This document shows, in pieces, positions 4,712-60,507 of a stretch of 64,000 nt of DNA. How positions within the stretch are numbered: position 1 is the stretch's first letter; each line of letters begins with the position of its first letter. The position numbers and the translations under genes were made by a program. Source of the stretch: Phapecoctavirus DIJ07P2; the sequence record OZ035771.1. One strand, given 5' to 3'. The notes under the pieces were generated by a model. It saw nothing but the letters and a program-made list of their open reading frames with translations. It had not been told where the DNA came from and did no database searches.

Positions 4712-4715
4712 TAGA

Positions 4716-12697: not shown

Positions 12698-13491
12698 TAT
12701 TCCTCCTTTCTAATGTTCTCCAGAACCCACTGAAGTTCTTTTAAACTTAAACTTCTTACTCCCGCAGTTTTACTAGCTTCAGTTTTAAGTAACGGGTAAG
12801 CCTCAATGATACGTGTTTTAAGATCAGAAGTCAAGGCTTTTAAAAAATAGGTAGATGCTTCAGATAAAGAATCTTCTTCTGTTAGCACTTTACCTGCGCT
12901 TGCTCCGGCTCTCCTAACGGCTATGTCGTAGTCTTTGCTGTTACCTAATACGAACAGTCGATTCTCTCCTAAAACAACGGGAGAACGCTTCTGGCTGCGT
13001 TTAATCCATATTTGGAATACACAAGGAACATCCCAAGGTTCTCCATGAAGAATAAAAGATCCTTTGGGACACTCTTCTTCGTGAAGAAGATGCATATAAG
13101 GATTTAGTTTGTGTGCAAAAAAGATTTTTTGAAATGTGCGAGGTAAGATAAAACAAATACCACCTTCGTTATCCAGCATTTCAGCGCAATGGTTAAAGAA
13201 CTTAATGGCAAGACTAGCGTTTTTTCCGAATGGAGGATTACCAACAAAAGCCGTTACACTACCAACAGACTCAACAGATTGAGCTAAAAAATCTGCCTCA
13301 ATACAATCTTCAAACTTAGGGTCAATATCAAAAGAAGTTATGTTTTTAAAGCAAGAAGAGAAAGCTCCTTCTCCCGCAGATGGTTCTACGTAGTTAGCTT
13401 CCTCTCCAAAAATTTCTTTGATCTTATCACATAAGAACCCCGCATAAGCGGGGTTAGTGTAATATTGATCAAGTGTGTTCAACTTGCTCAA
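12697..13491 (-). CDS. DNA N6-adenine methyltransferase
   Basis: motif I-like EPSAGEGAF and motif IV NPPF; TTG start 13491 with SD aaggagg. Confidence 0.55.
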   Translation of the reverse strand: MSKLNTLDQYYTNPAYAGFLCDKIKEIFGEEANYVEPSAGEGAFSSCFKNITSFDIDPKFEDCIEADFLAQSVESVGSVTAFVGNPPFGKNASLAIKFFNHCAEMLDNEGGICFILPRTFQKIFFAHKLNPYMHLLHEEECPKGSFILHGEPWDVPCVFQIWIKRSQKRSPVVLGENRLFVLGNSKDYDIAVRRAGASAGKVLTEEDSLSEASTYFLKALTSDLKTRIIEAYPLLKTEASKTAGVRSLSLKELQWVLENIRKEE

Positions 13492-28481: not shown

Positions 28482-28955
28482 TTAAAGTTTATAAATAGTC
28501 ACATCGTGACCTGTTTTTACTAAAGTTTCTTCAATCATCACTTGGATGATAGCCCAATTACCTCCGGCATGTCCCGCTCCAATCATAGGTAAACCGATCT
28601 TACATTTTTGGTCACGGAGAAGCAAATCATTAGCCATAGCTATTAGTGCATCGTAAAGTGCATCATAGTCCAACTGACGACCTTTACTATTGTATCCATA
28701 ACGATACTGTCCATAAAGGTTGTATACCATAGGGTTAGGATAATCTTCTGGTTCCCCTAAACTAAAAGAACCAAGCTTTTTCTGGTTTCCTGCTCCTGTA
28801 GCTAAATCTGCTTCGTATGCATATGGAAACGCATATTTTATTTGTGGGGCAATACCTGCCCCCATATTACACATACAGTTGCAACAATGAGCAATAACAG
28901 TTACTTCACCTGCTTTAGCGGCATCAATAAGATTACCTGTTTTCATTTTAAGCAT
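28482..28955 (-). CDS. macro domain-like protein
   Basis: start moved to ATG 28955 (SD taaggag) to avoid 92-nt overlap; IAHCCNCMCNMGAGIA and IGLPMIGAGHAGG resemble macro-domain glycine-rich blocks. Confidence 0.4.
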   Translation of the reverse strand: MLKMKTGNLIDAAKAGEVTVIAHCCNCMCNMGAGIAPQIKYAFPYAYEADLATGAGNQKKLGSFSLGEPEDYPNPMVYNLYGQYRYGYNSKGRQLDYDALYDALIAMANDLLLRDQKCKIGLPMIGAGHAGGNWAIIQVMIEETLVKTGHDVTIYKL

Positions 28956-28968
28956 TTTTAGCTCCTTA

Positions 28969-29796
28969 TTACAGAATGTGTTGTTTTGTGTAACGATCCA
29001 AGAATTCAAAGTTTTCAGCATACTTTGAAATTCGGTTGTAACCTTCTCCCAAGCATCCAAAGAAAAGTTGCTCTACATAGTAGTGTGGCAATTGACTAAG
29101 AATGATTTTGAAGTCTTCATGATTTTGGCCCATAAGATATTTAATAGGACGAACAAGACACTGTGCATCACGTTCTTCATTAATCATTTTAACAAACGCT
29201 TCTGGTGTATTAATGTAGTTAAAATTCAGTTTAGCTTCGGTATCTGCTTGATTACCTTCATATTTTGCAAAATACAGGAAGTAAACATCATTTTTAACTT
29301 GATTTTCATCAAGGATCTCAATCAGTTTGTCTTCATGCGTTCCAGTGATATTTACATCATCAATGAATACAAGCTTCTTATCACCCCAGAATTCTTTGTT
29401 ACAGTAGAATGTATCCCCATCAATAAGTTTCTTACGACTAGCTTTATCCAAGAAGCCATAATCGTTAATATAGCTAACTTTACGATGAATAATATCCAGT
29501 TCTGCTGAACGACCTTGATTATATTGTGATTGCAACATGTTAAAGTAATTAATAAAATGATCTGTCATCATTGTTGCAGCATTATGCACATGGTTGTAAG
29601 GAGAAGGAATGATAACAAATTGTTCCCCAATATGTTTCATTGCCACTTGAGCAAAAAACTGAAGTGCCAATTCTTTACCCATACGACGCGCGGCTTGGTT
29701 ACTACCAAATTTCAATTTTGAATAATCTTGGATATCAAAAGTAGCAGTTTCCAGGTCATCAAATTTATTTGCAAAAATTTGAGTTTGATTACGCAT
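28969..29796 (-). CDS. phosphoribosyltransferase (PRTase)-like protein
   Basis: PRPP-binding-type motif KLVFIDDVNITGTHED. Confidence 0.4.
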   Translation of the reverse strand: MRNQTQIFANKFDDLETATFDIQDYSKLKFGSNQAARRMGKELALQFFAQVAMKHIGEQFVIIPSPYNHVHNAATMMTDHFINYFNMLQSQYNQGRSAELDIIHRKVSYINDYGFLDKASRKKLIDGDTFYCNKEFWGDKKLVFIDDVNITGTHEDKLIEILDENQVKNDVYFLYFAKYEGNQADTEAKLNFNYINTPEAFVKMINEERDAQCLVRPIKYLMGQNHEDFKIILSQLPHYYVEQLFFGCLGEGYNRISKYAENFEFLDRYTKQHIL

Positions 29797-50390: not shown

Positions 50391-50596
50391 TATTTAAACT
50401 TTTTAAGAATTTACAAAAGTGAAAGTTGAAAACCAAAATTTAAAGTTTAGGAAAATTATCTTAAAATGTCAGATACAAAACAAAACTCAAAAGTCAAGGA
50501 AAATTTTAAAAATTTTGCGCGCCCACAGTATTTAAAGTTTTTTTGCTTTTACAAAAATGAAAGTACAAAAGCAAAATTTAAAGTTTACAAAAATTT
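50391..50596. repeat. AT-rich direct repeats (two ~65-bp copies plus a degenerate middle copy)
   Basis: tatttaaaCtttttaagaatttacaaaaGtgaaagt...caaaatttaaagttta versus tatttaaaGtttttttgcttttacaaaaAtgaaagt...caaaatttaaagttta. Confidence 0.6.
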
Positions 50597-50607
50597 ATGC
50601 AGATGGG

Positions 50608-50721
50608 AATGAGAAGAGTTCTCATATGGAAATGCAAATGATAATGATTCGCATTTAGGTTTATAAATGAGATTGATTCTTATTTGATAAGGTAAATGAT
50701 AATCATTCTCATTTAGAGAAT
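50608..50721. promoter_or_regulatory. cluster of palindromic TTCTCAT/ATGAGAA-type boxes resembling Fur boxes
   Basis: atgagaaGAGttctcat (perfect IR); aaatgataatgattcgcattt; aaatgataatcattctcatttagagaatg (cattctc-N5-gagaatg). Confidence 0.45.
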
Positions 50722-50972
50722 GACGCGCAGGGGCGGTGTTTGTCTCGCGCTCCCGTGTCCCCTCGCCATGTAATAAGAATAACAGATCCAGCCAGGAAAG
50801 CAAGCGATTATTTTATCTTTACATTTCTTTACAAATATATAGCGCCCAGCCTACCGGCGATCAACCTTCCAACCAGCGCCCTGGTATGTTAGCCCCGCCT
50901 TTACGCCGTGGGGGTGGCGCTTCCTCTTCTGTATGTAAAACAGTATAAGCCCGATCCCTGGGCTTGTCAAGA

Positions 50973-51239
50973 TTATTTTTTGTTTTCTTGCCAGGTTAGG
51001 ACACCTAGCCAAAAATGAATATCACCTTTTCCCCAATGTGGTATATTGCTTTCTTTCCCACCTTCACGCGCCCAGGTAAAACCGCCCGTGTAACTTTGTA
51101 ATTGATAACTATCCTCGACCTTATAATCTGATAGGTTGAGAACTGTTTCAACCTTTAAGCCCGTTGCGCTTGCTACCTGGTGCACCGTGCCGCCTTGCCA
51201 GCCCAATGAGTGCATAAGGTGTAATGTAGTATTTGTCAT
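50973..51239 (-). CDS. hypothetical protein (88 aa), isolated leftward gene
   Basis: track ORF; only weak SD; sits inside otherwise non-coding GC-rich island, so uncertain. Confidence 0.3.
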   Translation of the reverse strand: MTNTTLHLMHSLGWQGGTVHQVASATGLKVETVLNLSDYKVEDSYQLQSYTGGFTWAREGGKESNIPHWGKGDIHFWLGVLTWQENKK

Positions 51240-51348
51240 GGTGTCGCCCTTTCTTTGTTGTGCGCCCTGGTTGGCGCGGTAGAAAGATGATAGCCCTTTC
51301 CTTTATATATAGCAAGCAAAAAGAAAATAAAAAAGATTGAAAAAGTGA

Positions 51349-51406
51349 TTGACGTTCGCCAGGTGGCGGCATAATATTTACCACGTAGGGCGGCAATGGT
51401 GCCGCT
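51349..51406 (+). promoter_or_regulatory. early promoter + 5' stem-loop cassette, unit 1
   Basis: TTGACG, N16, ATAATA; ccacgtaggg then stem-loop ggcggcaATGGtgccgct; ATG 51427. Confidence 0.55.
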
Positions 51407-51426
51407 CATTATTTGGAATTAAGATC

Positions 51427-51624
51427 ATGGCAACATTGCACATTGTGGCGAAAGCTGGACAAATCAACGTAGTAGTAAACGGTTTTACTGAGTTCAGTCA
51501 TCCCCAGGATGATCATGAAACGGTTTTATCTTTCATTGATTCACTGTTAGAAATGGGAGTCATTACAGAAGACCAGCACGCTACAAAATGCAAACGCGTT
51601 AATCAGATTGCAGGAATAGAATAA
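51427..51624 (+). CDS. small early protein (65 aa)
   Basis: first ATG downstream of cassette 1; track start 51349 lies in promoter. Confidence 0.5.
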   Translation: MATLHIVAKAGQINVVVNGFTEFSHPQDDHETVLSFIDSLLEMGVITEDQHATKCKRVNQIAGIE

Positions 51625-51630
51625 AAAGTA

Positions 51631-51690
51631 TTGACAACAACCAACAACCTGATAAGATGTATCACATAAGGCGGGAAATGGTTTCCCGCT
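51631..51690 (+). promoter_or_regulatory. early promoter + 5' stem-loop cassette, unit 2
   Basis: TTGACA, N16, TAAGAT; stem-loop ggcgggaaaTGGtttcccgc; SD gagag; ATG 51714. Confidence 0.6.
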
Positions 51691-51713
51691 CACAACAGAA
51701 GAGAGAAATCATC

Positions 51714-51986
51714 ATGGCATCATATAGCGCAACAATGATCGTAGCTGGTACCACTGGTAAACCTATGAGCGGTGGCGGATCTTTCGCTAATATTAATATT
51801 GATGGGCGTTTATCCCTGGACGCAGCGATCACCGTGGCGCGGGAAACATTTAAGAAAGAATGTGATTTCAACAAGCAAGATTATTTAGGTTTTGCTATTG
51901 AAAAAACGGCGCGTTTTGTTGATTATAAAAGTCCGAAAATGGTTGATACTACACTAAAAGCGCAAGATGTAGCCTTTTTGCTTTAA
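51714..51986 (+). CDS. small early protein (90 aa)
   Basis: ATG 51714 with SD; track start 51657 lies in -10 region. Confidence 0.5.
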   Translation: MASYSATMIVAGTTGKPMSGGGSFANINIDGRLSLDAAITVARETFKKECDFNKQDYLGFAIEKTARFVDYKSPKMVDTTLKAQDVAFLL

Positions 51987-51988
51987 GG

Positions 51989-52046
51989 CTTGACATTAAC
52001 GAATAATTTGTTAATATGTTACATAAAGCGGGAACTATTCCCGCTA
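51989..52046 (+). promoter_or_regulatory. early promoter + 5' stem-loop cassette, unit 3
   Basis: TTGACA, N16, TAATAT; stem-loop agcgggaaCTAttcccgct; ATG 52063. Confidence 0.6.
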
Positions 52047-52062
52047 TTTGTAAGGTGGTAGA

Positions 52063-52320
52063 ATGTTTTACATCAAATTAAAAGGTCACGTGATCGCGTT
52101 CAAGGATAACGCTTTTTACAGATTAGCAAAATATGCGTTAATACATCCCCATTATGTTTATATAAGGGGGCGTGATGAAATAAATATCTTTGATCAAACA
52201 ACATGCGAGAACATCGAGATCCGCAAGGTTGGCGTACGTGACTATCGTACATCTTTCTACCCTTGCAAGGATTCAGCAAGTCTTTTTAAAGTATGCCAAT
52301 TGTTGAAAAAAGGTGGTTAA
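52063..52320 (+). CDS. small early protein (85 aa)
   Basis: track ORF; SD aaggtgg. Confidence 0.5.
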   Translation: MFYIKLKGHVIAFKDNAFYRLAKYALIHPHYVYIRGRDEINIFDQTTCENIEIRKVGVRDYRTSFYPCKDSASLFKVCQLLKKGG

Positions 52321-52321
52321 T

Positions 52322-52879
52322 ATGGGCCGCGAATATGTGATCCAGTCTTGGGTAAAACATGAAGCAGATGATCCGCGCATCATTCCTGATTATCTTGTCG
52401 ATGAATCCACGGGCTATAGCGGGGAGCAAATAGGTAACAGATTAGCACGTAGTAACGGCAACGTAAAAGCGCGTTATGTGCGCCCTGGCTGGCTGGCAAA
52501 TGGTAACGCTGATTTATCCAGTGCGGAAGATGCGAGCGACGGCGCGAAAGATAATCCTTTGTACAAAGTTGATCCGGCTTTTCGTGTCCTGGATGAATAC
52601 CCCAGCAAGATAGCGGCGCTCGATCAGGCCCTGGAAAGTAAGCGCATCACCTGGACCGCTTACAACATGGCAAAAAACGTACTTGATGGTAAATTGATTC
52701 AAGCTGAAAGAAAATTAGCCAAAATTGCAGCCATAGCCCAGGAGGAAGACGAGGAGACAACGGAAGAGGAAGAGTACGAAGAGATCCCGCCGTTGTTGTG
52801 TGTTGATGCTTTTCCTGATTATCAGCCGACAGAGGAAGAAAAAAGGATCGCACTAGAAAACTTTGAAAATAGTCTTTGA
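52322..52879 (+). CDS. early protein (185 aa) with acidic C-terminal region
   Basis: ATG 52322 with SD aaaggtgg; EEDEETTEEEEYEE tract; second cistron of unit 3. Confidence 0.5.
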   Translation: MGREYVIQSWVKHEADDPRIIPDYLVDESTGYSGEQIGNRLARSNGNVKARYVRPGWLANGNADLSSAEDASDGAKDNPLYKVDPAFRVLDEYPSKIAALDQALESKRITWTAYNMAKNVLDGKLIQAERKLAKIAAIAQEEDEETTEEEEYEEIPPLLCVDAFPDYQPTEEEKRIALENFENSL

Positions 52880-52934
52880 CATATCGCCGCCACTGGCATA
52901 ATATTTACCACGTAGGGCGGCAATGGTGCCGCTC
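52876..52934 (+). promoter_or_regulatory. early promoter + 5' stem-loop cassette, unit 4
   Basis: TTGACA, N16, ATAATA; stem-loop gggcggcaATGGtgccgct; ATG 52962. Confidence 0.55.
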
Positions 52935-52961
52935 ATAGTGAAATTATGCAAGAGGCTTACA

Positions 52962-53057
52962 ATGATTAATAAAGGAAATAGCTTGACGGTTGGAACGATT
53001 AACGCTATCATTCTCGCCGTTCCATTTTGGGTTGTAGTAGCGGCTATTATTTTCTAA
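52962..53057 (+). CDS. hydrophobic micro-protein (31 aa)
   Basis: only ORF between cassettes 4 and 5; SD agagg; MINKGNSLTVGTINAIILAVPFWVVVAAIIF. Confidence 0.35.
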   Translation: MINKGNSLTVGTINAIILAVPFWVVVAAIIF

Positions 53058-53066
53058 AAAATATTC

Positions 53067-53127
53067 TTGACAACGTTTTTTAATCTGATAAGATGTATCA
53101 CATAGGGCGGCGGAATACTTCCCCGCC
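53067..53127 (+). promoter_or_regulatory. early promoter + 5' stem-loop cassette, unit 5
   Basis: TTGACA, N16, TAAGAT; stem-loop ggcggcggaatacttccccgcc; ATG 53149. Confidence 0.6.
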
Positions 53128-53148
53128 AAAACAAAAAAGGGTAACACA

Positions 53149-53511
53149 ATGAGCAAGCAAATCAATACTATCATGTTTAATCTGGTATCTTTCCGCGATG
53201 ATATGAAAAATTTACCACGTGAAACGGTTGATATTCATGTTTCAGCTTATCGCGCCCTTATTGACATGTTACCGCTAAAACGTGATCAACATGCCGCTAA
53301 TATGATGCTTAATGCTATGCTTAAAAAGATGATTCAAACGGATCTCACCCTGGCATATGAGTATCAAGGGCGCTTATATGCAAATTACAACAGAGCGGTA
53401 CCTGGTCTGGGAAGTACTGAAGAGTTGCACGGCTTAAACCTGGATCAAAACACTTGGGATAGTATGCGCCGCGTTATGGTATGGGCCGAAAGCGGTAAAA
53501 TTTACGAATAA
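53149..53511 (+). CDS. small early protein (120 aa)
   Basis: track ORF; SD aaggg. Confidence 0.5.
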   Translation: MSKQINTIMFNLVSFRDDMKNLPRETVDIHVSAYRALIDMLPLKRDQHAANMMLNAMLKKMIQTDLTLAYEYQGRLYANYNRAVPGLGSTEELHGLNLDQNTWDSMRRVMVWAESGKIYE

Positions 53512-53517
53512 AAACGG

Positions 53518-53574
53518 TTGACACTGTTTTTTATTCTGGTATAGTTTATCACGTAGGGCGGCAATGGTGCCGCC
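53518..53574 (+). promoter_or_regulatory. early promoter + 5' stem-loop cassette, unit 6
   Basis: TTGACA, N16, TATAGT; stem-loop gggcggcaATGGtgccgcc; ATG 53595. Confidence 0.6.
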
Positions 53575-53594
53575 AACAATAAAAGGTTAACATC

Positions 53595-53774
53595 ATGACC
53601 ATCATTGCAAAAACTGAGATTATAGGTTTAGATTCGATCCTCCTGGCTTATGAGGAAACTTTAAAAATGTATGTAGTGACCTATGGTGATTATGTGCGTG
53701 AATACGAATACATTGATCTTGCTTTCGAATGTTACATTCGCCAGGTCAATAAAGCCTATAACGATTATCGTTAA
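53595..53774 (+). CDS. small early protein (59 aa)
   Basis: ATG 53595 with SD aaaagg; stop 53772-53774; below track cut-off. Confidence 0.45.
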   Translation: MTIIAKTEIIGLDSILLAYEETLKMYVVTYGDYVREYEYIDLAFECYIRQVNKAYNDYR

Positions 53775-53793
53775 AAGTTTTAGTCTTATACTA

Positions 53794-53846
53794 TTGACAA
53801 TGAGTGATAGTATAAGCATAATAACTTTTATCGGGAATACTTCCCA
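53794..53846 (+). promoter_or_regulatory. early promoter + short 5' stem-loop cassette, unit 7
   Basis: TTGACA, N17, CATAAT; short stem gggaaTACttccc; ATG 53871. Confidence 0.5.
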
Positions 53847-53870
53847 CTAACCAAAAAAGAGAGTAATATC

Positions 53871-54236
53871 ATGGCTATTAATATCAATGTTTCCTCTTAT
53901 GCTACCCTGGCTGACACGGCTAAAATTGAATTATCCAGCATTGAGGCGGTGCATATTAGCGCCCGTCGTTGGTTTCAACAGTCCTACGGTAACACATATT
54001 TTTCTTTAATGGTTGACGTTGAGATCGGCGGTAAACTGATCGAGGTGGTTAACGTTCCGTTTCAATATGGTTATGGTGATCATTTTGATACCGTCGCCCT
54101 GGAAGAATTTAGCAAGGTTATTAATATGGAAGGTAAAGAGTTTTCACGCGGCGCGTATCTTTCCCGTTTTTGCCGTGATAATGGGATCACTGTATACAGT
54201 CATGCGAGCGATGTTAAACGTAAAAAAGATTTATAA
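53871..54236 (+). CDS. small early protein (121 aa)
   Basis: track ORF; SD agagag. Confidence 0.5.
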   Translation: MAININVSSYATLADTAKIELSSIEAVHISARRWFQQSYGNTYFSLMVDVEIGGKLIEVVNVPFQYGYGDHFDTVALEEFSKVINMEGKEFSRGAYLSRFCRDNGITVYSHASDVKRKKDL

Positions 54237-54242
54237 AAAGCA

Positions 54243-54302
54243 TTGACAGCACGAATAAAAAGAGTAAACTGTATTACATAGAGAGCGGGAACACTTCCCG
54301 CC
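54243..54302 (+). promoter_or_regulatory. early promoter + 5' stem-loop cassette, unit 8
   Basis: TTGACA, N16, TAAACT; stem-loop gcgggaaCACttcccgc; ATG 54327. Confidence 0.6.
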
Positions 54303-54326
54303 TCACTGAAAAAAGAGATTAACATC

Positions 54327-54566
54327 ATGGCTAAATCAAAAATGTTCTTAGGTCACAAAAATAAAACTCATTGGAATGTAAGCCTTTGGATTAATAACGA
54401 TGAATCGTTATATCGGTTGGCGAAAGAATTTATCGCCGCTAATACTAATCGTAATGATGCTGCCCGTGATATGATGTTATTCCTGGAACAAACTGGACAA
54501 GATAAAACTCCAGACGGTTTCAAGTATAGCACTACAGCGATCCGCGCCGCGATGGTTGGAATGTAA
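54327..54566 (+). CDS. small early protein (79 aa)
   Basis: track ORF; SD agagat. Confidence 0.5.
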   Translation: MAKSKMFLGHKNKTHWNVSLWINNDESLYRLAKEFIAANTNRNDAARDMMLFLEQTGQDKTPDGFKYSTTAIRAAMVGM

Positions 54567-54579
54567 AGGAGATATAAAA

Positions 54580-54660
54580 ATGAAACATCGTTCTACCTAT
54601 CTAACAAAACGTTTTAGCTTAGATCATAAATTGGGCTATTACGGAAGAAATAGAAAATAA
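54580..54660 (+). CDS. basic micro-protein (26 aa)
   Basis: ATG 54580 with strong SD aaggag 7 nt upstream; MKHRSTYLTKRFSLDHKLGYYGRNRK; second cistron of unit 8. Confidence 0.3.
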   Translation: MKHRSTYLTKRFSLDHKLGYYGRNRK

Positions 54661-54661
54661 T

Positions 54662-54722
54662 TTGACAACGTTTAAAATTAGTGTAAGATGTATCACATAG
54701 GGCGGGAAGTGGTTTCCCGCCA
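54662..54722 (+). promoter_or_regulatory. early promoter + 5' stem-loop cassette, unit 9
   Basis: TTGACA, N16, TAAGAT; stem-loop ggcgggaagTGGtttcccgcc; ATG 54744. Confidence 0.6.
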
Positions 54723-54743
54723 ACAACAGAGAGATTAAAGATT

Positions 54744-54971
54744 ATGGCTATCAATATTGTTCGCGTATCCGGCACCGTTGGCACTTCCCAAGTTATTGCA
54801 GTTGTAACAAACAAAAAGATTAATGATGTATGTGAAAGCTTGAATAAGTGGGCTATTGTTAATTTTGGGGAATATGCAAGCGTCGAGTACATCGAATCCT
54901 ACCAGGTGCCAACCATCAGCCTAACCGATCTCAACGTTGATCGCTTGTTGTGCCTGGATGAATTAATCTGA
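54744..54971 (+). CDS. small early protein (75 aa)
   Basis: track ORF; SD agagat. Confidence 0.5.
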   Translation: MAINIVRVSGTVGTSQVIAVVTNKKINDVCESLNKWAIVNFGEYASVEYIESYQVPTISLTDLNVDRLLCLDELI

Positions 54972-54981
54972 AAAAAGATTG

Positions 54982-55039
54982 TTGACACCGGAAAGAAAAA
55001 GAGTAGAATATATTACATAGGGCGGCAATGGTGCCGCTC
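54982..55039 (+). promoter_or_regulatory. early promoter + 5' stem-loop cassette, unit 10
   Basis: TTGACA, N16, TAGAAT; stem-loop gggcggcaATGGtgccgct; ATG 55063. Confidence 0.6.
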
Positions 55040-55062
55040 ACAACAGAAGAGAGATTATCACG

Positions 55063-55278
55063 ATGGCTAATATCCGCACTTTACTGAAAAATGCAAGTCA
55101 AGTTTTATTTTCAGATGATGAGTATTTCAATAAAGACATTACAGGCGTGAAAAATTTAAAAGACGTGAAGGATGTTATCGGTATTCGTGGATCTTTACGT
55201 AAAGGTGACTACTATGGTAACAAGGTGCAATATAAACTGTCAAAGGATTACAATTTTACTTTGACAATTATTTCATAA
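55063..55278 (+). CDS. small early protein (71 aa)
   Basis: track ORF; SD agagag. Confidence 0.5.
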   Translation: MANIRTLLKNASQVLFSDDEYFNKDITGVKNLKDVKDVIGIRGSLRKGDYYGNKVQYKLSKDYNFTLTIIS

Positions 55279-55284
55279 AACCGC

Positions 55285-55346
55285 TTGCAATACTGCAAAA
55301 ATAAAGTAAACTGTATTCATCAAGGCGGTGGAATAGCCAACCGCCT
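55285..55346 (+). promoter_or_regulatory. early promoter + 5' stem-loop cassette, unit 11
   Basis: TTGCAA, N16, TAAACT; stem-loop aggcggtggaatagccaaccgcct; ATG 55370. Confidence 0.5.
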
Positions 55347-55369
55347 AACAAAGAGAAGAGGAAAACATC

Positions 55370-55537
55370 ATGATCACTTTCGCTACCCGTGAAGCCGCTC
55401 GCAACGTTGCACGTAAAGTTAACGCCGCCAACCTGGGCGCTACGCTTAAAGCTCCGGTAAAAGATGAATCAGGCAAATGGATCTTCCCTGGTCTGCGTCA
55501 TGCTGACAAGTTAGGTACTTTAAGCCTTAAAAAATAA
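55370..55537 (+). CDS. small early protein (55 aa), basic
   Basis: ATG 55370 with SD gaggaaaa; stop 55535-55537; shares MITFA N-terminus with next gene; below track cut-off. Confidence 0.45.
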   Translation: MITFATREAARNVARKVNAANLGATLKAPVKDESGKWIFPGLRHADKLGTLSLKK

Positions 55538-55540
55538 TCG

Positions 55541-55580
55541 TTGACTTTTCGTTATAGCGCCTTACAATGGGCGCTATAGA
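55541..55580 (+). promoter_or_regulatory. early promoter with -10 embedded in palindrome, unit 12
   Basis: TTGACT, N16, TACAAT lying in loop of agcgccTTACAATGggcgct; ATG 55613. Confidence 0.45.
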
Positions 55581-55612
55581 GAAGAGAAACCACTACTAAC
55601 AAGGAAACCATT

Positions 55613-55834
55613 ATGATCACTTTCGCTATTGTCGCCGTTGTTGCTGGTCAAGTTTACGTAAATGAGACATTTACTACAGAAGACAAGGCAGCAGGAGATA
55701 TAACCGCCGTTTACAATGAGTGCAAGGCAGTAGAAAGGATGTTAGCGCCTTGTATGCTAATGAGTGAACGCCAGGACGGAATAACAGTATTTACTAACAT
55801 TGGAACAGGGTACCAAATGGTAGTAACAAAATAA
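55613..55834 (+). CDS. small early protein (73 aa)
   Basis: track ORF; hydrophobic N-terminus MITFAIVAVVAG. Confidence 0.5.
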   Translation: MITFAIVAVVAGQVYVNETFTTEDKAAGDITAVYNECKAVERMLAPCMLMSERQDGITVFTNIGTGYQMVVTK

Positions 55835-55837
55835 AGC

Positions 55838-55896
55838 TTGACACCGATTTAATTTTTAGTAAACTGTTACACGTAGGGCGGGAATAGTTCCCGCTC
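55838..55896 (+). promoter_or_regulatory. early promoter + 5' stem-loop cassette, unit 13
   Basis: TTGACA, N16, TAAACT; stem-loop gggcgggaaTAGttcccgct; ATG 55914. Confidence 0.6.
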
Positions 55897-55913
55897 AAAA
55901 AGAGAGAAAGATC

Positions 55914-56267
55914 ATGAAAGCACAAAATGCAATTAAAGAGTACATCCTTGCCGCTATCGGTTTTAATGATTACGGTATTACAACAGAAAAAGAGAAGATC
56001 GCGGAATTGATGCGCCGTTTTAATTCCGAGTACTGGTACCCTGATAACCAATCACGTTTTAATTATAGTATTGTTAAAGCACTTGCATCATGGTTACAAG
56101 GTTTGCCATCAGATATTAATATCGCTTTCGAATATTGGGAAGTGGATCGCTTGTTAACATCCTGGGGATACATTAAAGAGAATAGCAGCGATGATAAAAT
56201 CCAACGAGAAAGGGAAAATTATTGGCTTTATATTGCAGGCGTGATCCTTGCTTGCTCTTATGAATGA
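55914..56267 (+). CDS. small early protein (117 aa)
   Basis: track ORF; SD agagag. Confidence 0.5.
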   Translation: MKAQNAIKEYILAAIGFNDYGITTEKEKIAELMRRFNSEYWYPDNQSRFNYSIVKALASWLQGLPSDINIAFEYWEVDRLLTSWGYIKENSSDDKIQRERENYWLYIAGVILACSYE

Positions 56268-56273
56268 TAAACC

Positions 56274-56327
56274 TTGACAATTTTACAAAACAGTTTAAAT
56301 TAACAATATAGCGGCAATGGTGCCGCT
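56274..56327 (+). promoter_or_regulatory. early promoter + 5' stem-loop cassette, unit 14
   Basis: TTGACA, N16, TAAATT; stem-loop agcggcaATGGtgccgct; ATG 56347. Confidence 0.5.
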
Positions 56328-56346
56328 CATATAAAGAGGAAACAAA

Positions 56347-56493
56347 ATGAATACATCTAATCGCGCAGAAAAAATTCAATCTTCCAAGATCCGCAAGGCC
56401 TGGAACGAGGAAGTGATCCGCAAAGGCGACAAGCGTAATAAAACAAAGCGCGGGAAGAGTGACAAATATAATTGGATGGATTTAGAGGATTAA
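56347..56493 (+). CDS. basic small protein (48 aa)
   Basis: ATG 56347 with SD aagagg; Lys/Arg-rich; stop 56491-56493; terminator follows. Confidence 0.45.
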   Translation: MNTSNRAEKIQSSKIRKAWNEEVIRKGDKRNKTKRGKSDKYNWMDLED

Positions 56494-56500
56494 CATAACA

Positions 56501-56528
56501 AGGGCGCACCAAGCGCCCTTTCTTTTTA
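56501..56528 (+). terminator. rho-independent terminator (conserved caagggcgcacNaagcgccc type)
   Basis: gggcgcaccaagcgccc hairpin followed by tttctttttat. Confidence 0.6.
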
Positions 56529-56548
56529 TATGCAGAGGATAAACAAAG

Positions 56549-56734
56549 ATGACTTTAAACGAGCTTAAAACAGCCTACAACGCAACATTAAAAATAGCCG
56601 TGCGTTACCGTGATGCGTATGGTTTTATCGCGCAGGGCGTGATCCTGGGCTTTTCTGACGATGGTTTGATCTATGTTGATGCACATCACAACAAGGTTAA
56701 ACCTGAAAACGTCATTAATATAAAATATCTTTAA
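56549..56734 (+). CDS. small early protein (61 aa)
   Basis: track ORF; no cassette of its own (follows terminator). Confidence 0.4.
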   Translation: MTLNELKTAYNATLKIAVRYRDAYGFIAQGVILGFSDDGLIYVDAHHNKVKPENVINIKYL

Positions 56735-56740
56735 AAATGG

Positions 56741-56800
56741 TTGACACCATAACCGGACCTGTTAAACTGTATTACATCAGGCGGGGAATAGTTCCCCACC
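56741..56800 (+). promoter_or_regulatory. early promoter + 5' stem-loop cassette, unit 15
   Basis: TTGACA, N16, TAAACT; stem-loop aggcggggaaTAGttccccacc; ATG 56820. Confidence 0.6.
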
Positions 56801-56819
56801 ATACAAAAAGGTAAATATT

Positions 56820-57026
56820 ATGATCACCGCAAAACAAGAAAAAATCATTATCGACGTTGCAGCCGTTGCCGCTATCGCTATTATTGGATCTTATTATGAT
56901 ACCCGTTTCCCGTCGGCTATGCATGAGGTCGCCGCCGTTGCATCAGTTGGCGTACTGTTTTACGTTGGTAAACGCTATTTATCACCAATGATTAACAAGC
57001 TGACACCGTGGAAAAATAAAGGTTGA
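56820..57026 (+). CDS. small membrane protein (68 aa)
   Basis: track ORF; hydrophobic VAAVAAIAIIG and VAAVASVGVLFYV segments. Confidence 0.5.
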   Translation: MITAKQEKIIIDVAAVAAIAIIGSYYDTRFPSAMHEVAAVASVGVLFYVGKRYLSPMINKLTPWKNKG

Positions 57027-57080
57027 TCCTGTTTTACATTATGTTATAGTTATCGTGTAGGGCGGCAATGGTGCCGCGCC
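57023..57080 (+). promoter_or_regulatory. early promoter + 5' stem-loop cassette, unit 16
   Basis: TTGATC, N16, TATAGT; stem-loop gggcggcaATGGtgccgcg; ATG 57098. Confidence 0.5.
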
Positions 57081-57097
57081 CCTTTGAGGATGCAATC

Positions 57098-57382
57098 ATG
57101 AGTAAAGCTAACACCGTGCTAATGTTTTCCCTGATTAATGATCTCGCTTACTTGTCCAACATGACGCAGGAGGGTAACACATTAACGGCAACATTCACCA
57201 ATAAGCTTGACCGAGTGATCATCGTCTCACTGAAAACAGTTAGTAAAGGCTTTTACTTGTTAGCTTATCATTGTATCACTGATACCGATGAGACAAGCCA
57301 GGACTATAGCGCCCCTTTCCCTGAATCAATGGCACGGGAGATCATCGCCGCCGTTGTAAATGATGGTTTGTTTACTGCATAA
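57098..57382 (+). CDS. small early protein (94 aa)
   Basis: ATG 57098 with SD gagga; track start 57068 lies within stem-loop. Confidence 0.5.
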   Translation: MSKANTVLMFSLINDLAYLSNMTQEGNTLTATFTNKLDRVIIVSLKTVSKGFYLLAYHCITDTDETSQDYSAPFPESMAREIIAAVVNDGLFTA

Positions 57383-57400
57383 AATAATTTAGAAAAAGGC

Positions 57401-57458
57401 TTGCAATCATTTTGAGATAGTGTATATTTAATTCATAGGGCGGCGGGAATAGTTCCCA
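57401..57458 (+). promoter_or_regulatory. early promoter + 5' stem-loop cassette, unit 17
   Basis: TTGCAA, N16, TATATT; stem-loop gggcggcgggaatagttccc; ATG 57481. Confidence 0.5.
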
Positions 57459-57480
57459 AAGCAAACGAGAGGATTACACG

Positions 57481-57600
57481 ATGAGCAAGTACACAGTAGA
57501 ATACACGGTAGAGAATCCGGCAGTATCCGAAGGTAAAAAGATGACATTTACCATCAGTATAATCGCTTTCGTTGTCACTATCTTATCAATCATCTTATAA
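57481..57600 (+). CDS. micro-protein (39 aa) with C-terminal transmembrane helix
   Basis: ATG 57481 with SD gagagg; MSKYTVEYTVENPAVSEGKKMTFTISIIAFVVTILSIIL; stop 57598-57600. Confidence 0.4.
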   Translation: MSKYTVEYTVENPAVSEGKKMTFTISIIAFVVTILSIIL

Positions 57601-57610
57601 GGTGCACACC

Positions 57611-57772
57611 ATGAAAACAACAGATATTATCAAAGAGATCGCCCTTGCCGCTGGCGTTGAGATCGAGGAAGTGATCGCGCTCAATCTTACAGAAAACGAT
57701 CTGCGCAACTATGAAGCGGAAAGCGTGAAAGCAAGTGGCGCGGTCCTGGCATATAATCCGGCTAACAAATAG
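57611..57772 (+). CDS. small early protein (53 aa)
   Basis: ATG 57611 with SD aaggtg, preferred over track start 57572 which overlaps previous micro-ORF. Confidence 0.4.
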   Translation: MKTTDIIKEIALAAGVEIEEVIALNLTENDLRNYEAESVKASGAVLAYNPANK

Positions 57773-57773
57773 T

Positions 57774-57830
57774 TTGACAAGCTGAATCAACCTGATAAGA
57801 TGTATCACATAGGGGCGACAAGCGCCCCGC
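57774..57830 (+). promoter_or_regulatory. early promoter + 5' stem-loop cassette, unit 18
   Basis: TTGACA, N16, TAAGAT; stem-loop ggggcgACAAgcgcccc; ATG 57850. Confidence 0.6.
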
Positions 57831-57849
57831 CTAACAGAGAGATAGAATC

Positions 57850-58128
57850 ATGACCATCGCCAAATTATCCGCCGAAGAAATCGAACAAGTGCTAACTACT
57901 AACCTGGAACAATGGAAACGTGAGGCAGATATACAATCAGCACAATGGCTTAACGAGAAGTTAACACCGGATGATCTGAGTAAGATTATAGATCCTCAAT
58001 TCTACGAAGATATTCACGACACCGTTTTAAGCGTCGAGGATGTACTTGATAAGCATTATATTGCTACTGATTTGCAGGTTTACGGGCGTAAAAACTTTAT
58101 TACTATTCACGACATTTACAATAACTAA
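57850..58128 (+). CDS. small early protein (92 aa)
   Basis: track ORF; SD agagag. Confidence 0.5.
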   Translation: MTIAKLSAEEIEQVLTTNLEQWKREADIQSAQWLNEKLTPDDLSKIIDPQFYEDIHDTVLSVEDVLDKHYIATDLQVYGRKNFITIHDIYNN

Positions 58129-58136
58129 GGGATAAC

Positions 58137-58265
58137 ATGAATCCGAAAGATATGCAAGCATGGAAAGGGTACGACGATCTAAGCGCCTTGCGCAATAAGT
58201 CAAGCCGTAACCTTAGACGGTTAGAAGCAAAGAAAAAGAAAAAACAGTTTGACAAGTCCGCTTAA
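58137..58265 (+). CDS. Lys-rich micro-protein (42 aa)
   Basis: ATG 58137 with SD aaggg; ...RNLRRLEAKKKKKQFDKSA; 3' end overlaps next -35. Confidence 0.35.
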   Translation: MNPKDMQAWKGYDDLSALRNKSSRNLRRLEAKKKKKQFDKSA

Positions 58266-58305
58266 TCTGGTAAAGTGTATCTCGTAGGGCGGCAATGATG
58301 CCGCT
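58249..58305 (+). promoter_or_regulatory. early promoter + 5' stem-loop cassette, unit 19
   Basis: TTGACA, N16, TAAAGT; stem-loop gggcggcaATGAtgccgct; ATG 58326. Confidence 0.6.
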
Positions 58306-58325
58306 CACAAGAAGAGAGAAAAATC

Positions 58326-58610
58326 ATGAAGATCACAAAAAGCCTAACTAATTATGCAGCACGTCGCGGATTATGCTTAACCGTTGAAAACTCAGGGAAA
58401 GAAGACTTTTTGTGTTTTTGGGAGCTTGAAAATGATTGCGAGTGGATGTTTTCTTATTCTATCTGCGAAGATCAAAACGGTTGTTTGTTAACCTGGCGCG
58501 GTAATATCTATTTACCGGAAGAAATTAAAGAAGAGTTACCAGGTACGATCATGACAGAGAGACAGCTTAAGGAAGTGATCAATTTTGTAGGGCAAAACAT
58601 TAAAAAATAA
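58326..58610 (+). CDS. small early protein (94 aa)
   Basis: track ORF; SD agagag. Confidence 0.5.
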   Translation: MKITKSLTNYAARRGLCLTVENSGKEDFLCFWELENDCEWMFSYSICEDQNGCLLTWRGNIYLPEEIKEELPGTIMTERQLKEVINFVGQNIKK

Positions 58611-58612
58611 TT

Positions 58613-58673
58613 TGACAGCACGCAAACAACGTAGTAAAGTTTACCACATAGGGCGGCGGAATGGTCCACCGCT
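58613..58673 (+). promoter_or_regulatory. early promoter + 5' stem-loop cassette, unit 20
   Basis: TTGACA, N17, TAAAGT; stem-loop ggcggcggaATGGtccaccgc; ATG 58696. Confidence 0.6.
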
Positions 58674-58695
58674 CACAACAGAAGAGAAACAAATC

Positions 58696-58866
58696 ATGAT
58701 CCCGACTATGTTTTATGTATCGCGCAAAGGTCACAATATTTTTTGGTCTGAAGATTTAAATGAAGCCATGACGTTTGCCCGTGATCGTGTTGCTATCGGT
58801 GGCGTTAACATCACCGTAACCGATGAAAATGGCATTGAATACTATAACGGCGACGATGAAGAGTAA
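58696..58866 (+). CDS. small early protein (56 aa)
   Basis: ATG 58696 with SD agaga; track start 58612 lies in promoter. Confidence 0.45.
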   Translation: MIPTMFYVSRKGHNIFWSEDLNEAMTFARDRVAIGGVNITVTDENGIEYYNGDDEE

Positions 58867-58871
58867 TTAAT

Positions 58872-58893
58872 AAGGCGGGGAATACTTCCCGCC
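58872..58893 (+). promoter_or_regulatory. cassette-type GC stem-loop located downstream of a gene (terminator or RNA processing/stability element)
   Basis: ggcggggaatacttcccgcc directly after stop 58864-58866, not followed by a clean T-tract. Confidence 0.35.
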
Positions 58894-58932
58894 ACGCAGT
58901 GAATTTTCCGTTTGGGAAGTAAAAAATAAATC

Positions 58933-58994
58933 TTGACGATAATTTGTTATCTGATAGAATGTATTTCGTAGGGCGGGGCAATAAGGCAAGCCCA
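58933..58994 (+). promoter_or_regulatory. early promoter cassette with weak stem-loop, unit 21
   Basis: TTGACG, N16, TAGAAT; gtatttcgtagggcgggg then weak gggc..gccc stem; ATG 59011. Confidence 0.5.
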
Positions 58995-59010
58995 CAAAGA
59001 GGAAAATAAA

Positions 59011-59379
59011 ATGAGCAAATCAGCAATTAAAGCACTTGAAAAAGCACAAGAAGTGATCGCAACGTCAACCACTGGCGCAAAGGTTAATCTCGTTTGTTAT
59101 CTGACAGATGAAACTATCCGTAAAAATTGGCGTAATGCTGATTTACTGGCTTGCTTATTGATTAATAGTGTCGCTAATGCTTTCCAGTGTGAAACAGCCG
59201 AGAGCCTGGAGGAAAACTTGTTTGATAATATGGATCAAGCCATTGAAACCTATATACAATCAAACCTGGATAGCTGGAACAGTAAAACATGGCCCGACAA
59301 TTTACGCGATACAACTGATCAACTGATCCGCCTTGCCCTGATGGTTGAACGCGATAACGTTTACAACAGCACAAAGTAA
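59011..59379 (+). CDS. small early protein (122 aa)
   Basis: track ORF; SD agagga. Confidence 0.5.
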   Translation: MSKSAIKALEKAQEVIATSTTGAKVNLVCYLTDETIRKNWRNADLLACLLINSVANAFQCETAESLEENLFDNMDQAIETYIQSNLDSWNSKTWPDNLRDTTDQLIRLALMVERDNVYNSTK

Positions 59380-59387
59380 GATTATAC

Positions 59388-59410
59388 AAGGGCGCACTAA
59401 GCGCCCTTTA
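59388..59410 (+). terminator. rho-independent terminator (conserved caagggcgcacNaagcgccc type)
   Basis: gggcgcactaagcgccc hairpin then tttaacg. Confidence 0.5.
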
Positions 59411-59443
59411 ACGTAAAGAAATGTAAATAATGCGCTATCCCTA

Positions 59444-59475
59444 TTGACAGGGGATCGGCGTTATATTATATTTAA
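59444..59475 (+). promoter_or_regulatory. early promoter without GC stem-loop, unit 22
   Basis: TTGACA, N16-18, TATATT; ATG 59518. Confidence 0.45.
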
Positions 59476-59517
59476 CTTACTGGCAGCAAACAACGAAACG
59501 AAACAAAGGACAACATC

Positions 59518-59937
59518 ATGAACATTAAATCAAATAATCCAGCTTACTCCTTCGATAACGCTTTTTGTCACGGTAGCGCCGCCAAAGGCTTCGAAATCGA
59601 TGGTAAATTGGTTATCGTGAACGTTGACGGGGAAGAGGTTGCAGTGTATCCGGTAAACGATGTTAAAAGCCGTTTACAATGCCGCATGGATGTTACCGCA
59701 TATCAGCTTGATCCGGTCCGTGTAGTTGCCCTGGTATTAGAGGAAGAGATCAAAGCAATGCATCACAGTAATAAGTTTATTGGTGACGCGCAGGATAATA
59801 TGAACGTTTGCCGCCATAAAGTTAATGAAGCATTGAAAGAATGCGGTTTTAAGGATCTGATGATTAAACGTGATGAAAAATTCCGCTTTCGTAATGACCT
59901 GGCAAACCGGATCTACTCAATCTATGAAGCTTTATAA
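59518..59937 (+). CDS. small early protein (139 aa)
   Basis: track ORF; SD aaagga. Confidence 0.5.
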   Translation: MNIKSNNPAYSFDNAFCHGSAAKGFEIDGKLVIVNVDGEEVAVYPVNDVKSRLQCRMDVTAYQLDPVRVVALVLEEEIKAMHHSNKFIGDAQDNMNVCRHKVNEALKECGFKDLMIKRDEKFRFRNDLANRIYSIYEAL

Positions 59938-59952
59938 TCGACAACAAAACAA

Positions 59953-59980
59953 GGGGCGCACAAAGCGCCCTTTCTTTTTG
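59953..59980 (+). terminator. rho-independent terminator (conserved caaggggcgcacaaagcgccc type)
   Basis: ggggcgcacaaagcgccc hairpin followed by tttctttttg. Confidence 0.6.
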
Positions 59981-60059
59981 CCCGAACAATGTTGATAGCT
60001 TTCGCCTATGAAAAACCGACACAGAACAAAACTGAATAAATCGCGGTATCGAGCTAATC

Positions 60060-60480
60060 AACCAGCAAACGAATAACCATACCTCCCAGGGTTACAGGCT
60101 GTTAGAGAGCCATTTAGAGCGGTTAAAATCGATCAACAACCAACAACAAACCATCAAAAACACCCTTTTACCTCCTTTCTAGTGCAATGATAACCATTAT
60201 CATCTACCCATGATTATCTATGCAATATAAGCGCATAATTATAATGTTGATAATAGTTCGCAACAACTAACCAACAAACAACATAAAACAATAAGCAAAC
60301 TAATCATAATCAAAGGAATAATAGCAAGATGATTGATAACGACAAACAATCGAACCATGATGAATACTAAGCAAGATAACGATAACACGACAAAACAACC
60401 AACTAACGAACAATAACAAACGAAACCATTAAAATAATAACTATTAGCAAAATAGTGCCTGAATGAAATCATTACAAAAC
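60060..60480. repeat. strand-biased A+C-rich (plus strand) non-coding tract with short caacaa/gataacga-type repeats
   Basis: plus strand nearly devoid of G and T runs, e.g. caaccaacaacaaaccatcaaaaacaccc and gataacgacaaacaatcgaacc / gataacgataacacgacaaaacaacc. Confidence 0.5.
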
Positions 60481-60507
60481 GAATCATTCACAGAGTCATC
60501 ATTAGCA

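Follow-up and report, generated by a model that had tools for sequence, protein, structure and literature searches.

The promoter-early stem-loop (PeSL) cassettes of T4-like phages (RB49/phi1, T4/PST and KVP40/nt-1) consist of an AT-rich tract, a consensus sigma-70 early promoter, a stem-loop, a Shine-Dalgarno sequence (SD) and an ATG, are repeated in hyperplastic regions rich in ORFans, and mediate deletions, insertions and mini-circles (Arbiol et al. 2010, PMC2839356; Comeau et al. 2014, PMC4122927). Here we describe an array of promoter-hairpin cassettes in Phapecoctavirus DIJ07P2. The window that we analyzed is a 64,000-nt stretch of sequence record OZ035771.1, and all positions refer to its numbering. 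Between 51349 and 59475 this window contains 22 promoter units, all on the + strand. The explanation that we favor, and consider fairly probable as a whole, is that of a PeSL-type array of early cassettes in which a hairpin in the 5' leader stabilizes and insulates the mRNA and the cassette serves as a recombination module. The assignment of the array as PeSL-type immediate-early expression cassettes is supported by sequence and by precedent. The transcribed leader hairpin most likely stabilizes and insulates each mRNA, and comparison with related genomes has shown, at the level of sequence, that the repeated cassette doubles as a recombination module that shuffles genes.

Layout of the cassette array

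A cassette is about 80 bp long and would read, in order, as an A-rich UP-like tract, near-consensus sigma-70 -35 and -10 hexamers, a start motif CAC|RTAGGG 7-8 nt past the -10, a GC-rich stem-loop of 6-10 bp that begins near +4, a CA/GA-rich leader that is free of structure and contains an SD, and the ATG of a short gene. The units of the array and one isolated copy are given below; each + strand entry begins with the first nucleotide of the -35, and promoters are written as -35, spacer length and -10.

51349..51426 (+), cassette 1: TTGACG-17-TAATAT; predicted +1 at ~51385; hairpin 51388-51407 (GGGCGGCAatggTGCCGCTC); ATG 51427, 65 aa
51631..51713 (+), cassette 2: TTGACA-16-TAAGAT; hairpin 51670-51690 (GGCGGGAAAtggTTTCCCGCT); ATG 51714, 90 aa
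51990..52062 (+), cassette 3: TTGACA-16-TAATAT; hairpin 52027-52045 (AGCGGGAActaTTCCCGCT); two ORFs, 52063 (85 aa) and 52322 (185 aa)
52876..52961 (+), cassette 4: TTGACA-17-TAATAT; hairpin 52915-52934; ATG 52962, 31 aa
53067..53148 (+), cassette 5: TTGACA-16-TAAGAT; bulged hairpin 53106-53127; ATG 53149, 120 aa
53518..53594 (+), cassette 6: TTGACA-16-TATAGT; hairpin core 53557-53574; ATG 53595, 59 aa
53794..53870 (+), cassette 7: TTGACA-17-CATAAT; weak hairpin 53833-53845 (GGGAAtacTTCCC, -5.5 kcal/mol); ATG 53871, 121 aa
54243..54326 (+), cassette 8: TTGACA-16-TAAACT; hairpin 54281-54304; ATG 54327, 79 aa, DUF7249; cassette and gene common to 121Q-like jumbo phages
54662..54743 (+), cassette 9: TTGACA-16-TAAGAT; hairpin 54701-54721; ATG 54744, 75 aa
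54982..55062 (+), cassette 10: TTGACA-16-TAGAAT; hairpin 55020-55039; ATG 55063, 71 aa
55285..55369 (+), cassette 11: TTGCAA-16-TAAACT; imperfect hairpin 55323-55346; ATG 55370, 55 aa
55541..55612 (+), cassette 12: TTGACT-16-TACAAT; -10 in the loop of palindrome 55552-55579 (RB49-type PeSL layout); ATG 55613, 73 aa
55838..55913 (+), cassette 13: TTGACA-16-TAAACT; hairpin 55876-55896; ATG 55914, 117 aa
56274..56346 (+), cassette 14: TTGACA-16-TAAATT; hairpin 56310-56327; ATG 56347, 48 aa
56741..56819 (+), cassette 15: TTGACA-16-TAAACT; hairpin 56780-56800 with C.A mismatch (GGCGGGGAA/TTCCCCACC); ATG 56820, 68 aa
57023..57097 (+), cassette 16: TTGATC-16-TATAGT; hairpin core 57062-57077; ATG 57098, 94 aa
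57401..57480 (+), cassette 17: TTGCAA-16-TATATT; degenerate hairpin 57440-57462 (-7.8 kcal/mol); ATG 57481, 39-aa membrane protein; then ORF 57611, 53 aa
57774..57849 (+), cassette 18: TTGACA-16-TAAGAT; hairpin 57812-57828 (GGGGCGacaagCGCCCC); ATG 57850, 92 aa; then ORF 58137, 42 aa
58249..58325 (+), cassette 19: TTGACA-16-TAAAGT; hairpin core 58287-58306; ATG 58326, 94 aa
58612..58695 (+), cassette 20: TTGACA-17-TAAAGT; hairpin 58651-58674 with C.A mismatch; ATG 58696, 56 aa
58933..59010 (+), cassette 21: TTGACG-16-TAGAAT; broken hairpin 58968-58995; ATG 59011, 122 aa
59444..59517 (+), unit 22: TTGACA-17-TATATT; no hairpin; ATG 59518, 139 aa
28166..28244 (-), isolated cassette before TerC: TTGACA-16-TAAGAT; hairpin 28204-28186 (GCGGGGAAtagTTCCCCGC); ATG 28168

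A preliminary description of this DNA had claimed 22 promoter units, and we located all of them. The -35 hexamer is TTGACA in 16 units, TTGACG in two, TTGCAA in two, and TTGACT and TTGATC in one each; the spacer measures 16-17 nt, and the -10 has the form TAnnnT in 21 units and reads CATAAT in one. Nine of the 22 carry an extended TG, an A-rich tract precedes the -35, and every unit ends in a purine-rich SD and an ATG. These elements bear out the earlier reading of near-consensus sigma-70 promoters, each with an SD and a short gene. The distance between units, given before as 200-550 bp, was measured as 191-886 bp. The conserved start region holds in its general form C-R-T-A-G-G-G, but the exact CATAGGG is limited to six units, and the notion of one cassette per tiny ORF fits the 22 units but not five of the 27 ORFs (52322, 54581, 56549, 57611 and 58137), which lack a cassette of their own.

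A hairpin follows the -10 in 20 of the 22 units, beginning about 10 nt past it. Strong folds (-11 to -15 kcal/mol) are found in 18 of these 20, the units at 53794 and 57401 being weak, and the hairpin 58968-58995 of the unit at 58933 is broken. The examples that we folded gave z-scores of -2.2 to -4.4. Two exceptions pointed out earlier were both confirmed: the unit at 55541 has its -10 within a palindrome, and the unit at 59444 has no hairpin.

With a strict automatic definition of the cassette we observed 13 copies against 0.08 expected from 300 dinucleotide-preserving shuffles. The exact promoter string TTGACA-N16/17-TAnnnT occurs 15 times, against 0.09 in shuffles, and has no match on the - strand of the array. 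By copy density, the 22 units in 8.1 kb of array compare with one true copy in 51 kb elsewhere in the window, and the 49.6-kb replication region of the relative tuntematon likewise contains one cassette copy. The copy outside the array, also proposed before (- strand, 28244-28186), is real, and the gene downstream of it is TerC (PF03741, E = 3e-40).

Two other sites resemble the cassette in part. On the - strand, 17022-16940 carries a strong TTGACA-17-TATAGT promoter, CATAGGG, a less GC-rich hairpin (CTGCCTTactcAAGGCAG) and a CACAAC-type leader, and looks like a divergent cassette outside the array; a tRNA scan of the window predicted no tRNA genes, including none at this site. At 13422-13455 (+), TTATCACATAAG and the hairpin AACCCCGCataaGCGGGGTT resemble the cassette discriminator and hairpin with no upstream -35/-10, and may be a relic or a chance match.

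Position and proposed role of the leader hairpin

To describe the anatomy of the cassette we gathered 77 distinct copies from eight phages. The loop center lies 19.7 +/- 1.9 nt past the -10 and 28.4 +/- 5.4 nt ahead of the ATG, which indicates that the hairpin is bound more tightly to the promoter than to the start codon. At -1/+1, E. coli RNA polymerase prefers a pyrimidine-purine step. Of 78 cassettes, 59 have CAT or CGT as the -1/+1/+2 triplet at the eighth nucleotide past the -10, and the predicted start is this pyrimidine-purine step, which would place the hairpin at about +4 of the transcript. With this start, 0-5 nucleotides (mode 3) are unpaired at the 5' end, and leaders that we folded consist of a 3-nt tail, a single hairpin (-12.7 to -15.3 kcal/mol) and an SD/AUG free of structure. 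In cassette 8 the GC core is shifted 4 nt downstream, yet flanking GAG/CUC pairs still open the stem at +4.

This position bears on an annotation in the record of the type phage phAPEC8 (JX561091), where the hexamer region is labeled "host dependent promoter determined with MEME" and exactly the hairpin 20-mer ATAGGGCGGCAATGGTGCCG is labeled "putative promoter determined with PHIRE". The 20-mer would then be a phage-specific promoter, and its ATAGGG part resembles the initiation region of T7-type promoters. However, PHIRE detects repeated 20-mers only, the 20-mer always lies about 10 nt past a near-consensus sigma-70 -10, its sequence is variable and palindromic, and we know of no phage RNA polymerase in this phage group. 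A phage-specific promoter at this site is, in our view, extremely improbable.

The same site is occupied by at least nine different arm sequences (including GCGGCA, GCGGGAA, GCGGGAAA, GCGGGGAA, GCGGCGGA, GGGGCG, GGGGAGAA, GGTGGGGAA and TATAGCGCC); the stems measure 5-10 bp and the loops 3-5 nt. Diversity of this kind speaks for selection that acts on base pairing and not on a fixed sequence or half-site spacing. The earlier observation of differing yet complementary arms therefore stands, except that the fourth stem quoted in its support (aggcgggg/ccccacc) contains a C.A mismatch. The compensatory changes that had been read into these arms did not withstand comparison between phages. Different hairpin types occur at orthologous genes (the gene after cassette 2 has GCGGGAAA, GCGGCA or GCGGCGGA), so that much of the apparent covariation reflects swaps within a small repertoire and not independent compensatory mutation; the changes are mostly exchanges of whole hairpins, that is, recombination or gene conversion between cassettes. 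RNAalifold, applied to a MAFFT alignment of 21 hairpin cassettes (20 from the array and the TerC copy, with units 12 and 22 omitted), returned no consensus structure because stem and loop lengths vary and the columns fall out of register. The hairpins were analyzed sequence by sequence in place of column-based covariation. An Rfam scan of 50500-60500 at E <= 1 gave no relevant family.

From the consensus character of the promoters we infer that unmodified host RNA polymerase would fire all cassettes immediately upon infection. The hairpin would then be transcribed as a 5'-proximal mRNA element and most likely act as RNA. With 0-5 unpaired 5' nucleotides and a stable obstacle ahead of the coding region, it may slow 5'-end-dependent decay by RppH and RNase E, it may shield the ribosome-binding site from upstream read-through RNA, and in read-through transcripts it could form a 3' barrier for the upstream cistron. 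The two enzymes require 2 or more unpaired 5' nucleotides, with a preference for 3 or more, and RppH disfavors a pyrimidine at position 2 (PMC8833179); position 2 of the predicted cassette transcripts is U. Another study describes structural obstacles as shielding downstream sites from RNase E (PMC11194081).

Several observations weigh against a stabilizing RNA hairpin. Since a 3-nt tail satisfies the minimum of RppH and RNase E, such a hairpin would protect the transcript only in part. Folding energies are practically the same for the sense and the antisense strand (-12.65 vs -12.27 kcal/mol), and the stems contain internal G.U and C.A mismatches in both orientations; sequence alone thus cannot separate an RNA structure from a DNA structure. 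The hairpin is weak, broken or missing in units 7, 17, 21 and 22, and about eight other strong sigma-70 promoters in the window have none, which indicates that the hairpin is not essential for expression. The literature on phAPEC8-, phi92-, rV5- and 121Q-type phages yielded no transcriptome, and the +1 is a predicted one. To these points has to be added the terminator role assigned to stem-loops in the PeSL papers, whose authors found that one stem-loop of RB49 lowered lacZ activity in the manner of a terminator (PMC2839356, PMC4122927).

Promoters without a hairpin form a second class: near-consensus sigma-70 promoters at 13994, 21519, 41710, 42750 and 44105 (-) and at 59444 and 63299 (+), with a short leader and an SD directly after the -10. 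Most of them lie in the replication module.

If the cassette hairpins were attenuators or terminators, they would damp read-through from upstream cassettes and leave each gene dominated by its own promoter. Besides the RB49 measurement, this reading has on its side the record of phage ASO2A (MZ726793), in which the hexamers are labeled "promoter" and the hairpin "rho-independent terminator predicted by WebGeSTer", with TransTermHP also calling the hairpins rho-independent terminators; the ASO2A paper itself gives counts only of annotated promoters and terminators. In addition, an orphan hairpin of the cassette family directly follows a stop codon. The features concerned are these:

58874..58893 (+), orphan cassette-family hairpin: GGCGGGGAatacTTCCCGCC; 7 nt past a stop codon, promoterless; 3' end coinciding with one edge of a 2.8-kb indel in the comparison with tuntematon
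56500..56520 (+), canonical intrinsic terminator: AAGGGCGCaccaaGCGCCCTT followed by TCTTTTT; a hairpin class distinct from the cassette hairpins
59388..59408 (+), terminator-class hairpin: AAGGGCGCactaaGCGCCCTT; after ORF 59011-59379, weak T tract
59951..59973 (+), canonical intrinsic terminator closing the array: AAGGGGCGCacaaaGCGCCCTTT followed by CTTTTT

However, each cassette hairpin separates a promoter from the very gene that it drives, and an efficient terminator there would silence the gene served. A T-run is missing from 20 of 21 cassette hairpins on either strand; the hairpin 51388-51407 alone passes even a lenient threshold (5 or more T among 8 nt), and the others run into CACAACAG- or AACAAAAG-type sequence. 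A separate class of terminators, AAGGGCGC-loop-GCGCCCTT between A and T tracts, is used by the phage at gene ends right after stop codons (the last three entries above). Among the GC-rich hairpins in the arrays of the eight phages, 83 of 99 are promoter-linked, and the other 16 belong mostly to this terminator class (GGGCGC...GCGCCC, with A/T tracts, after stop codons). On the T-run criteria and the separate terminator class we rejected intrinsic termination as the function of the cassette hairpins. Weak attenuation of read-through is possible, but an attenuator or terminator role as such appears unlikely to us, and both GenBank labels for the hairpin, "PHIRE promoter" and "terminator", are probably wrong.

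One ORF near these elements stands apart: 56549-56734 (61 aa, with a PHROG family) directly follows a canonical terminator, and no promoter of its own is recognizable.

Since both strands fold equally well, as a DNA palindrome would, the site might also be bound by a phage or host factor, for example a roadblock repressor at +4 to +23 or an RNA-binding regulator, that shuts off the early class or marks phage mRNA. A site just past +1 is typical of a roadblock operator, many copies have in common a partly conserved base (GCGG...CCGC) and a loop of the AAURGU type, and a similar GGGAA...TTCCC hairpin is found in unrelated coliphages. Yet arms, stem length and loop length vary, so that neither half-site identity nor spacing is kept, some cassettes contain entirely different palindromes (GGGGCG/CGCCCC, TATAGCGCC/GGCGCTATA), and no candidate regulator was identified. 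We hold such a binding site to be quite improbable. The earlier preference for RNA structure over a protein operator is upheld insofar as the variety of arms argues against a fixed operator; the equal folding of the strands is compatible with action as RNA or as DNA.

A variant of the leader-hairpin explanation, to which we would give rather little weight, is that the hairpin is a shared 5' tag on immediate-early mRNAs of unrelated large coliphages, read by a host or phage factor that privileges these transcripts. The tag would be mobile together with the promoter and would extend over Stephanstirmvirinae, 121Q-like jumbo phages and perhaps RB49-type T4-like phages. It could protect transcripts during host mRNA degradation, couple transcription and translation of very short ORFs through a promoter-proximal pause, or allow a timed collective shut-off.

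Recombination and spread among phages

The array region is 95-96% identical to that of Phapecoctavirus tuntematon, Mt1B1_P17 and Ro121c4YLVW, and matches are found in at least 237 phage records. One cassette has a 100% match in the type phage phAPEC8, from which the array differs in gene content. We identify the region as the variable array of early genes in a phAPEC8-like myophage (Phapecoctavirus, subfamily Stephanstirmvirinae). Some near-identical relatives were deposited under other hosts, as Campylobacter phages A150, C3 and A147, Pseudomonas PsgM04F, Acinetobacter ABPW7 and Klebsiella ZCKP1; these labels may reflect mislabeled hosts or E. coli-derived contaminants.

As a direct-orientation repeat with more than 20 copies, the cassette is also a substrate for homologous recombination, and comparison with relatives shows deletion, insertion and swapping of genes within the array and between phage families. 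We aligned the array to seven relatives and found 43 of 64 internal homology breakpoints in cassettes, against 26.5% of the region expected (binomial p ~1e-11), a figure that we take as supportive and not decisive because the relatives are non-independent and viable breakpoints are expected to be intergenic, which itself counts against leaning on it. Individual cases are more specific. Between stop codon and SD, phage nepoznato precisely lacks the promoter and hairpin of cassette 13. The same phage contains a chimeric cassette with the 5' half of cassette 10 and the 3' half of cassette 11, the intervening gene 55063-55278 being deleted, as expected for the product of recombination between neighboring cassettes. 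The promoter and 5' arm of cassette 21, whose hairpin is broken in our window, occur in relatives and in an rV5-like phage with an intact hairpin and a different gene.

These exchanges also raise the possibility that the hairpin has no role in expression and persists through spread and homogenization of the cassette, the palindrome itself promoting template switching or recombination. Whole hairpin types are indeed exchanged at orthologous sites, breakpoints fall inside hairpins, the hairpins of units 15 and 20 look like hybrids of two types with C.A mismatches, and the loop of cassette 3 is inverted relative to relatives. Against this, stable pairing is kept over many unrelated arm sequences and three phage groups, the hairpin is tightly fixed relative to the promoter, and in cassette 8 the stem begins at +4 in spite of its displaced core. 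A hairpin without a role in expression is very unlikely in our estimation.

The inversion in cassette 3 deserves a separate remark. The loop of its perfectly palindromic hairpin (52027-52045) reads cta in the window and tag, the reverse complement, in two relatives (~2230 in their loci), which is a signature of DNA-level hairpin inversion or template switching.

The same cassettes precede small genes in other Phapecoctavirus phages and in Justusliebigvirus (phi92, VivaForever). In a 12-kb early region of the rV5-like Vequintavirus EduardKellenberger we found one cassette, on a gene common to phi92, which indicates that the array is not a general feature of the rV5 supergroup. The unrelated 121Q-like jumbo phage WPEC3, a phage of Escherichia, shows the same layout at 2990-7050 ahead of at least five small genes (ATGs at 3080, 3760, 5132, 5429 and 7046), namely a promoter (AGTACTTGCA...TATAAT), about 12 nt, a GC hairpin of the GGGAA..TTCCC type, a leader and the ATG. 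The homology of cassette 8 to the jumbo phage starts exactly at the -35, and the DUF7249 gene moves together with the -10, the discriminator and the hairpin. This gene (54327-54566) is unusually mobile, with 80-88% DNA identity to rV5-like phages, 121Q-like jumbo phages and the siphovirus PGT2. We found no description of a WPEC3-type promoter-hairpin layout in the jumbo-phage papers that we consulted and none of a composite cassette in the literature on phAPEC8-, phi92-, rV5- and 121Q-type phages.

The genes served by the array are 27 short ORFs of 26-185 aa. PHROG families matched 25 of 26 ORFs scanned, which identifies them as real conserved genes; 24 of the families are without known function and one is annotated only as a membrane protein (39 aa), and the 31-aa ORF had no PHROG match. 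A Pfam scan of the array ORFs returned DUF7249 only. On these annotations, the host-takeover and anti-defense arsenal proposed earlier is at most a candidate role of the ORFs. According to the annotation of tuntematon, the remainder of the window contains tail-fiber genes and a dense module for replication and nucleotide metabolism (with DNA polymerase, primase/helicase, NrdD, a helicase of the UvrD type and TerC), which is transcribed opposite to the array and in which the TerC cassette is the only one. Two genes upstream of TerC, 28482-29060 (- strand) encodes a Macro-domain protein (PF01661, E = 4.8e-5).

Comparison with known systems

A small hairpin transcribed soon after an early promoter is also found in lambda-type nut sites (boxA and boxB) and in rrn antiterminator leaders. 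The loops of the cassettes are AUGG, AUAG or UAG, in contrast to the GNRA-like pentaloops of lambda nut, and a boxA-like motif is neither enriched (27 matches vs 23.6 expected) nor linked to cassettes. A nut-type reading was rejected on the loop type and the lack of a linked boxA; moreover, antitermination is not needed where each gene has its own promoter.

Stem-loops at the 5' end stabilize mRNA in the ompA 5' untranslated region and in the T7 gene 10 leader. The cassettes share with them a stable hairpin a few nucleotides from the (predicted) 5' end, followed by an unstructured SD leader. The likeness is one of layout, and the predicted tail in the cassettes is usually 3-4 nt, a length still accepted by RppH and RNase E.

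Lambdoid-phage morons are promoter-gene-terminator units. Like them, the cassettes are autonomous single-gene units that move between phage genomes, as illustrated by cassette 8, which together with its DUF7249 gene is common to 121Q-like jumbo phages, while the gene alone also occurs in rV5-like phages and a siphovirus. Unlike morons, they form a tandem array in the early region of a lytic phage, lack a terminator of their own and share a promoter-hairpin module.

The dozens of short early genes without known function in large virulent coliphages are prime candidates for host takeover and anti-defense. The cassette offers a simple signature for listing immediate-early genes and would correct the labeling of its hairpin as a terminator or phage promoter. 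It would also explain gene turnover in the array region and the hops of single genes between phage families, and its more than 20 natural variants of one 5'-leader design could be used to study effects of 5'-proximal hairpins on mRNA life and expression in E. coli. Most useful in this respect are the uniform position in the leader, the recurrence in unrelated coliphage groups and the doubtful hairpin labels in GenBank.

The PeSL concept has been known since 2010; what is added here are further phage groups and a layout that calls the interpretation as terminator into question. PeSLs were described in T4-like phages, whereas the present array belongs to a Stephanstirmvirinae phage. Its stem-loop lies almost uniformly past the -10 at about +4, a position that matches only the rarest PeSL subclass, whereas stem-loops are upstream of the promoter in PST and nt-1 and mostly between or over the hexamers in RB49; the unit at 55541, with its stem-loop over the -10, has the RB49-type layout. 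The stems are of the GCGG...CCGC type instead of polyG/polyC. Since T-runs are missing and a separate terminator class is present, the terminator role proposed for PeSLs fits poorly here. In both systems, however, a composite intergenic cassette of about 100 bp with an AT-rich tract, a sigma-70 early promoter, a stem-loop, an SD and an ATG is repeated many times where gene content varies and short genes of unknown function abound, and relatives differ by indels and replacements at the cassettes. Judged by sequence, every PeSL feature that can be tested is present in the array, and the PeSL is the closest known kind of element to its cassettes.

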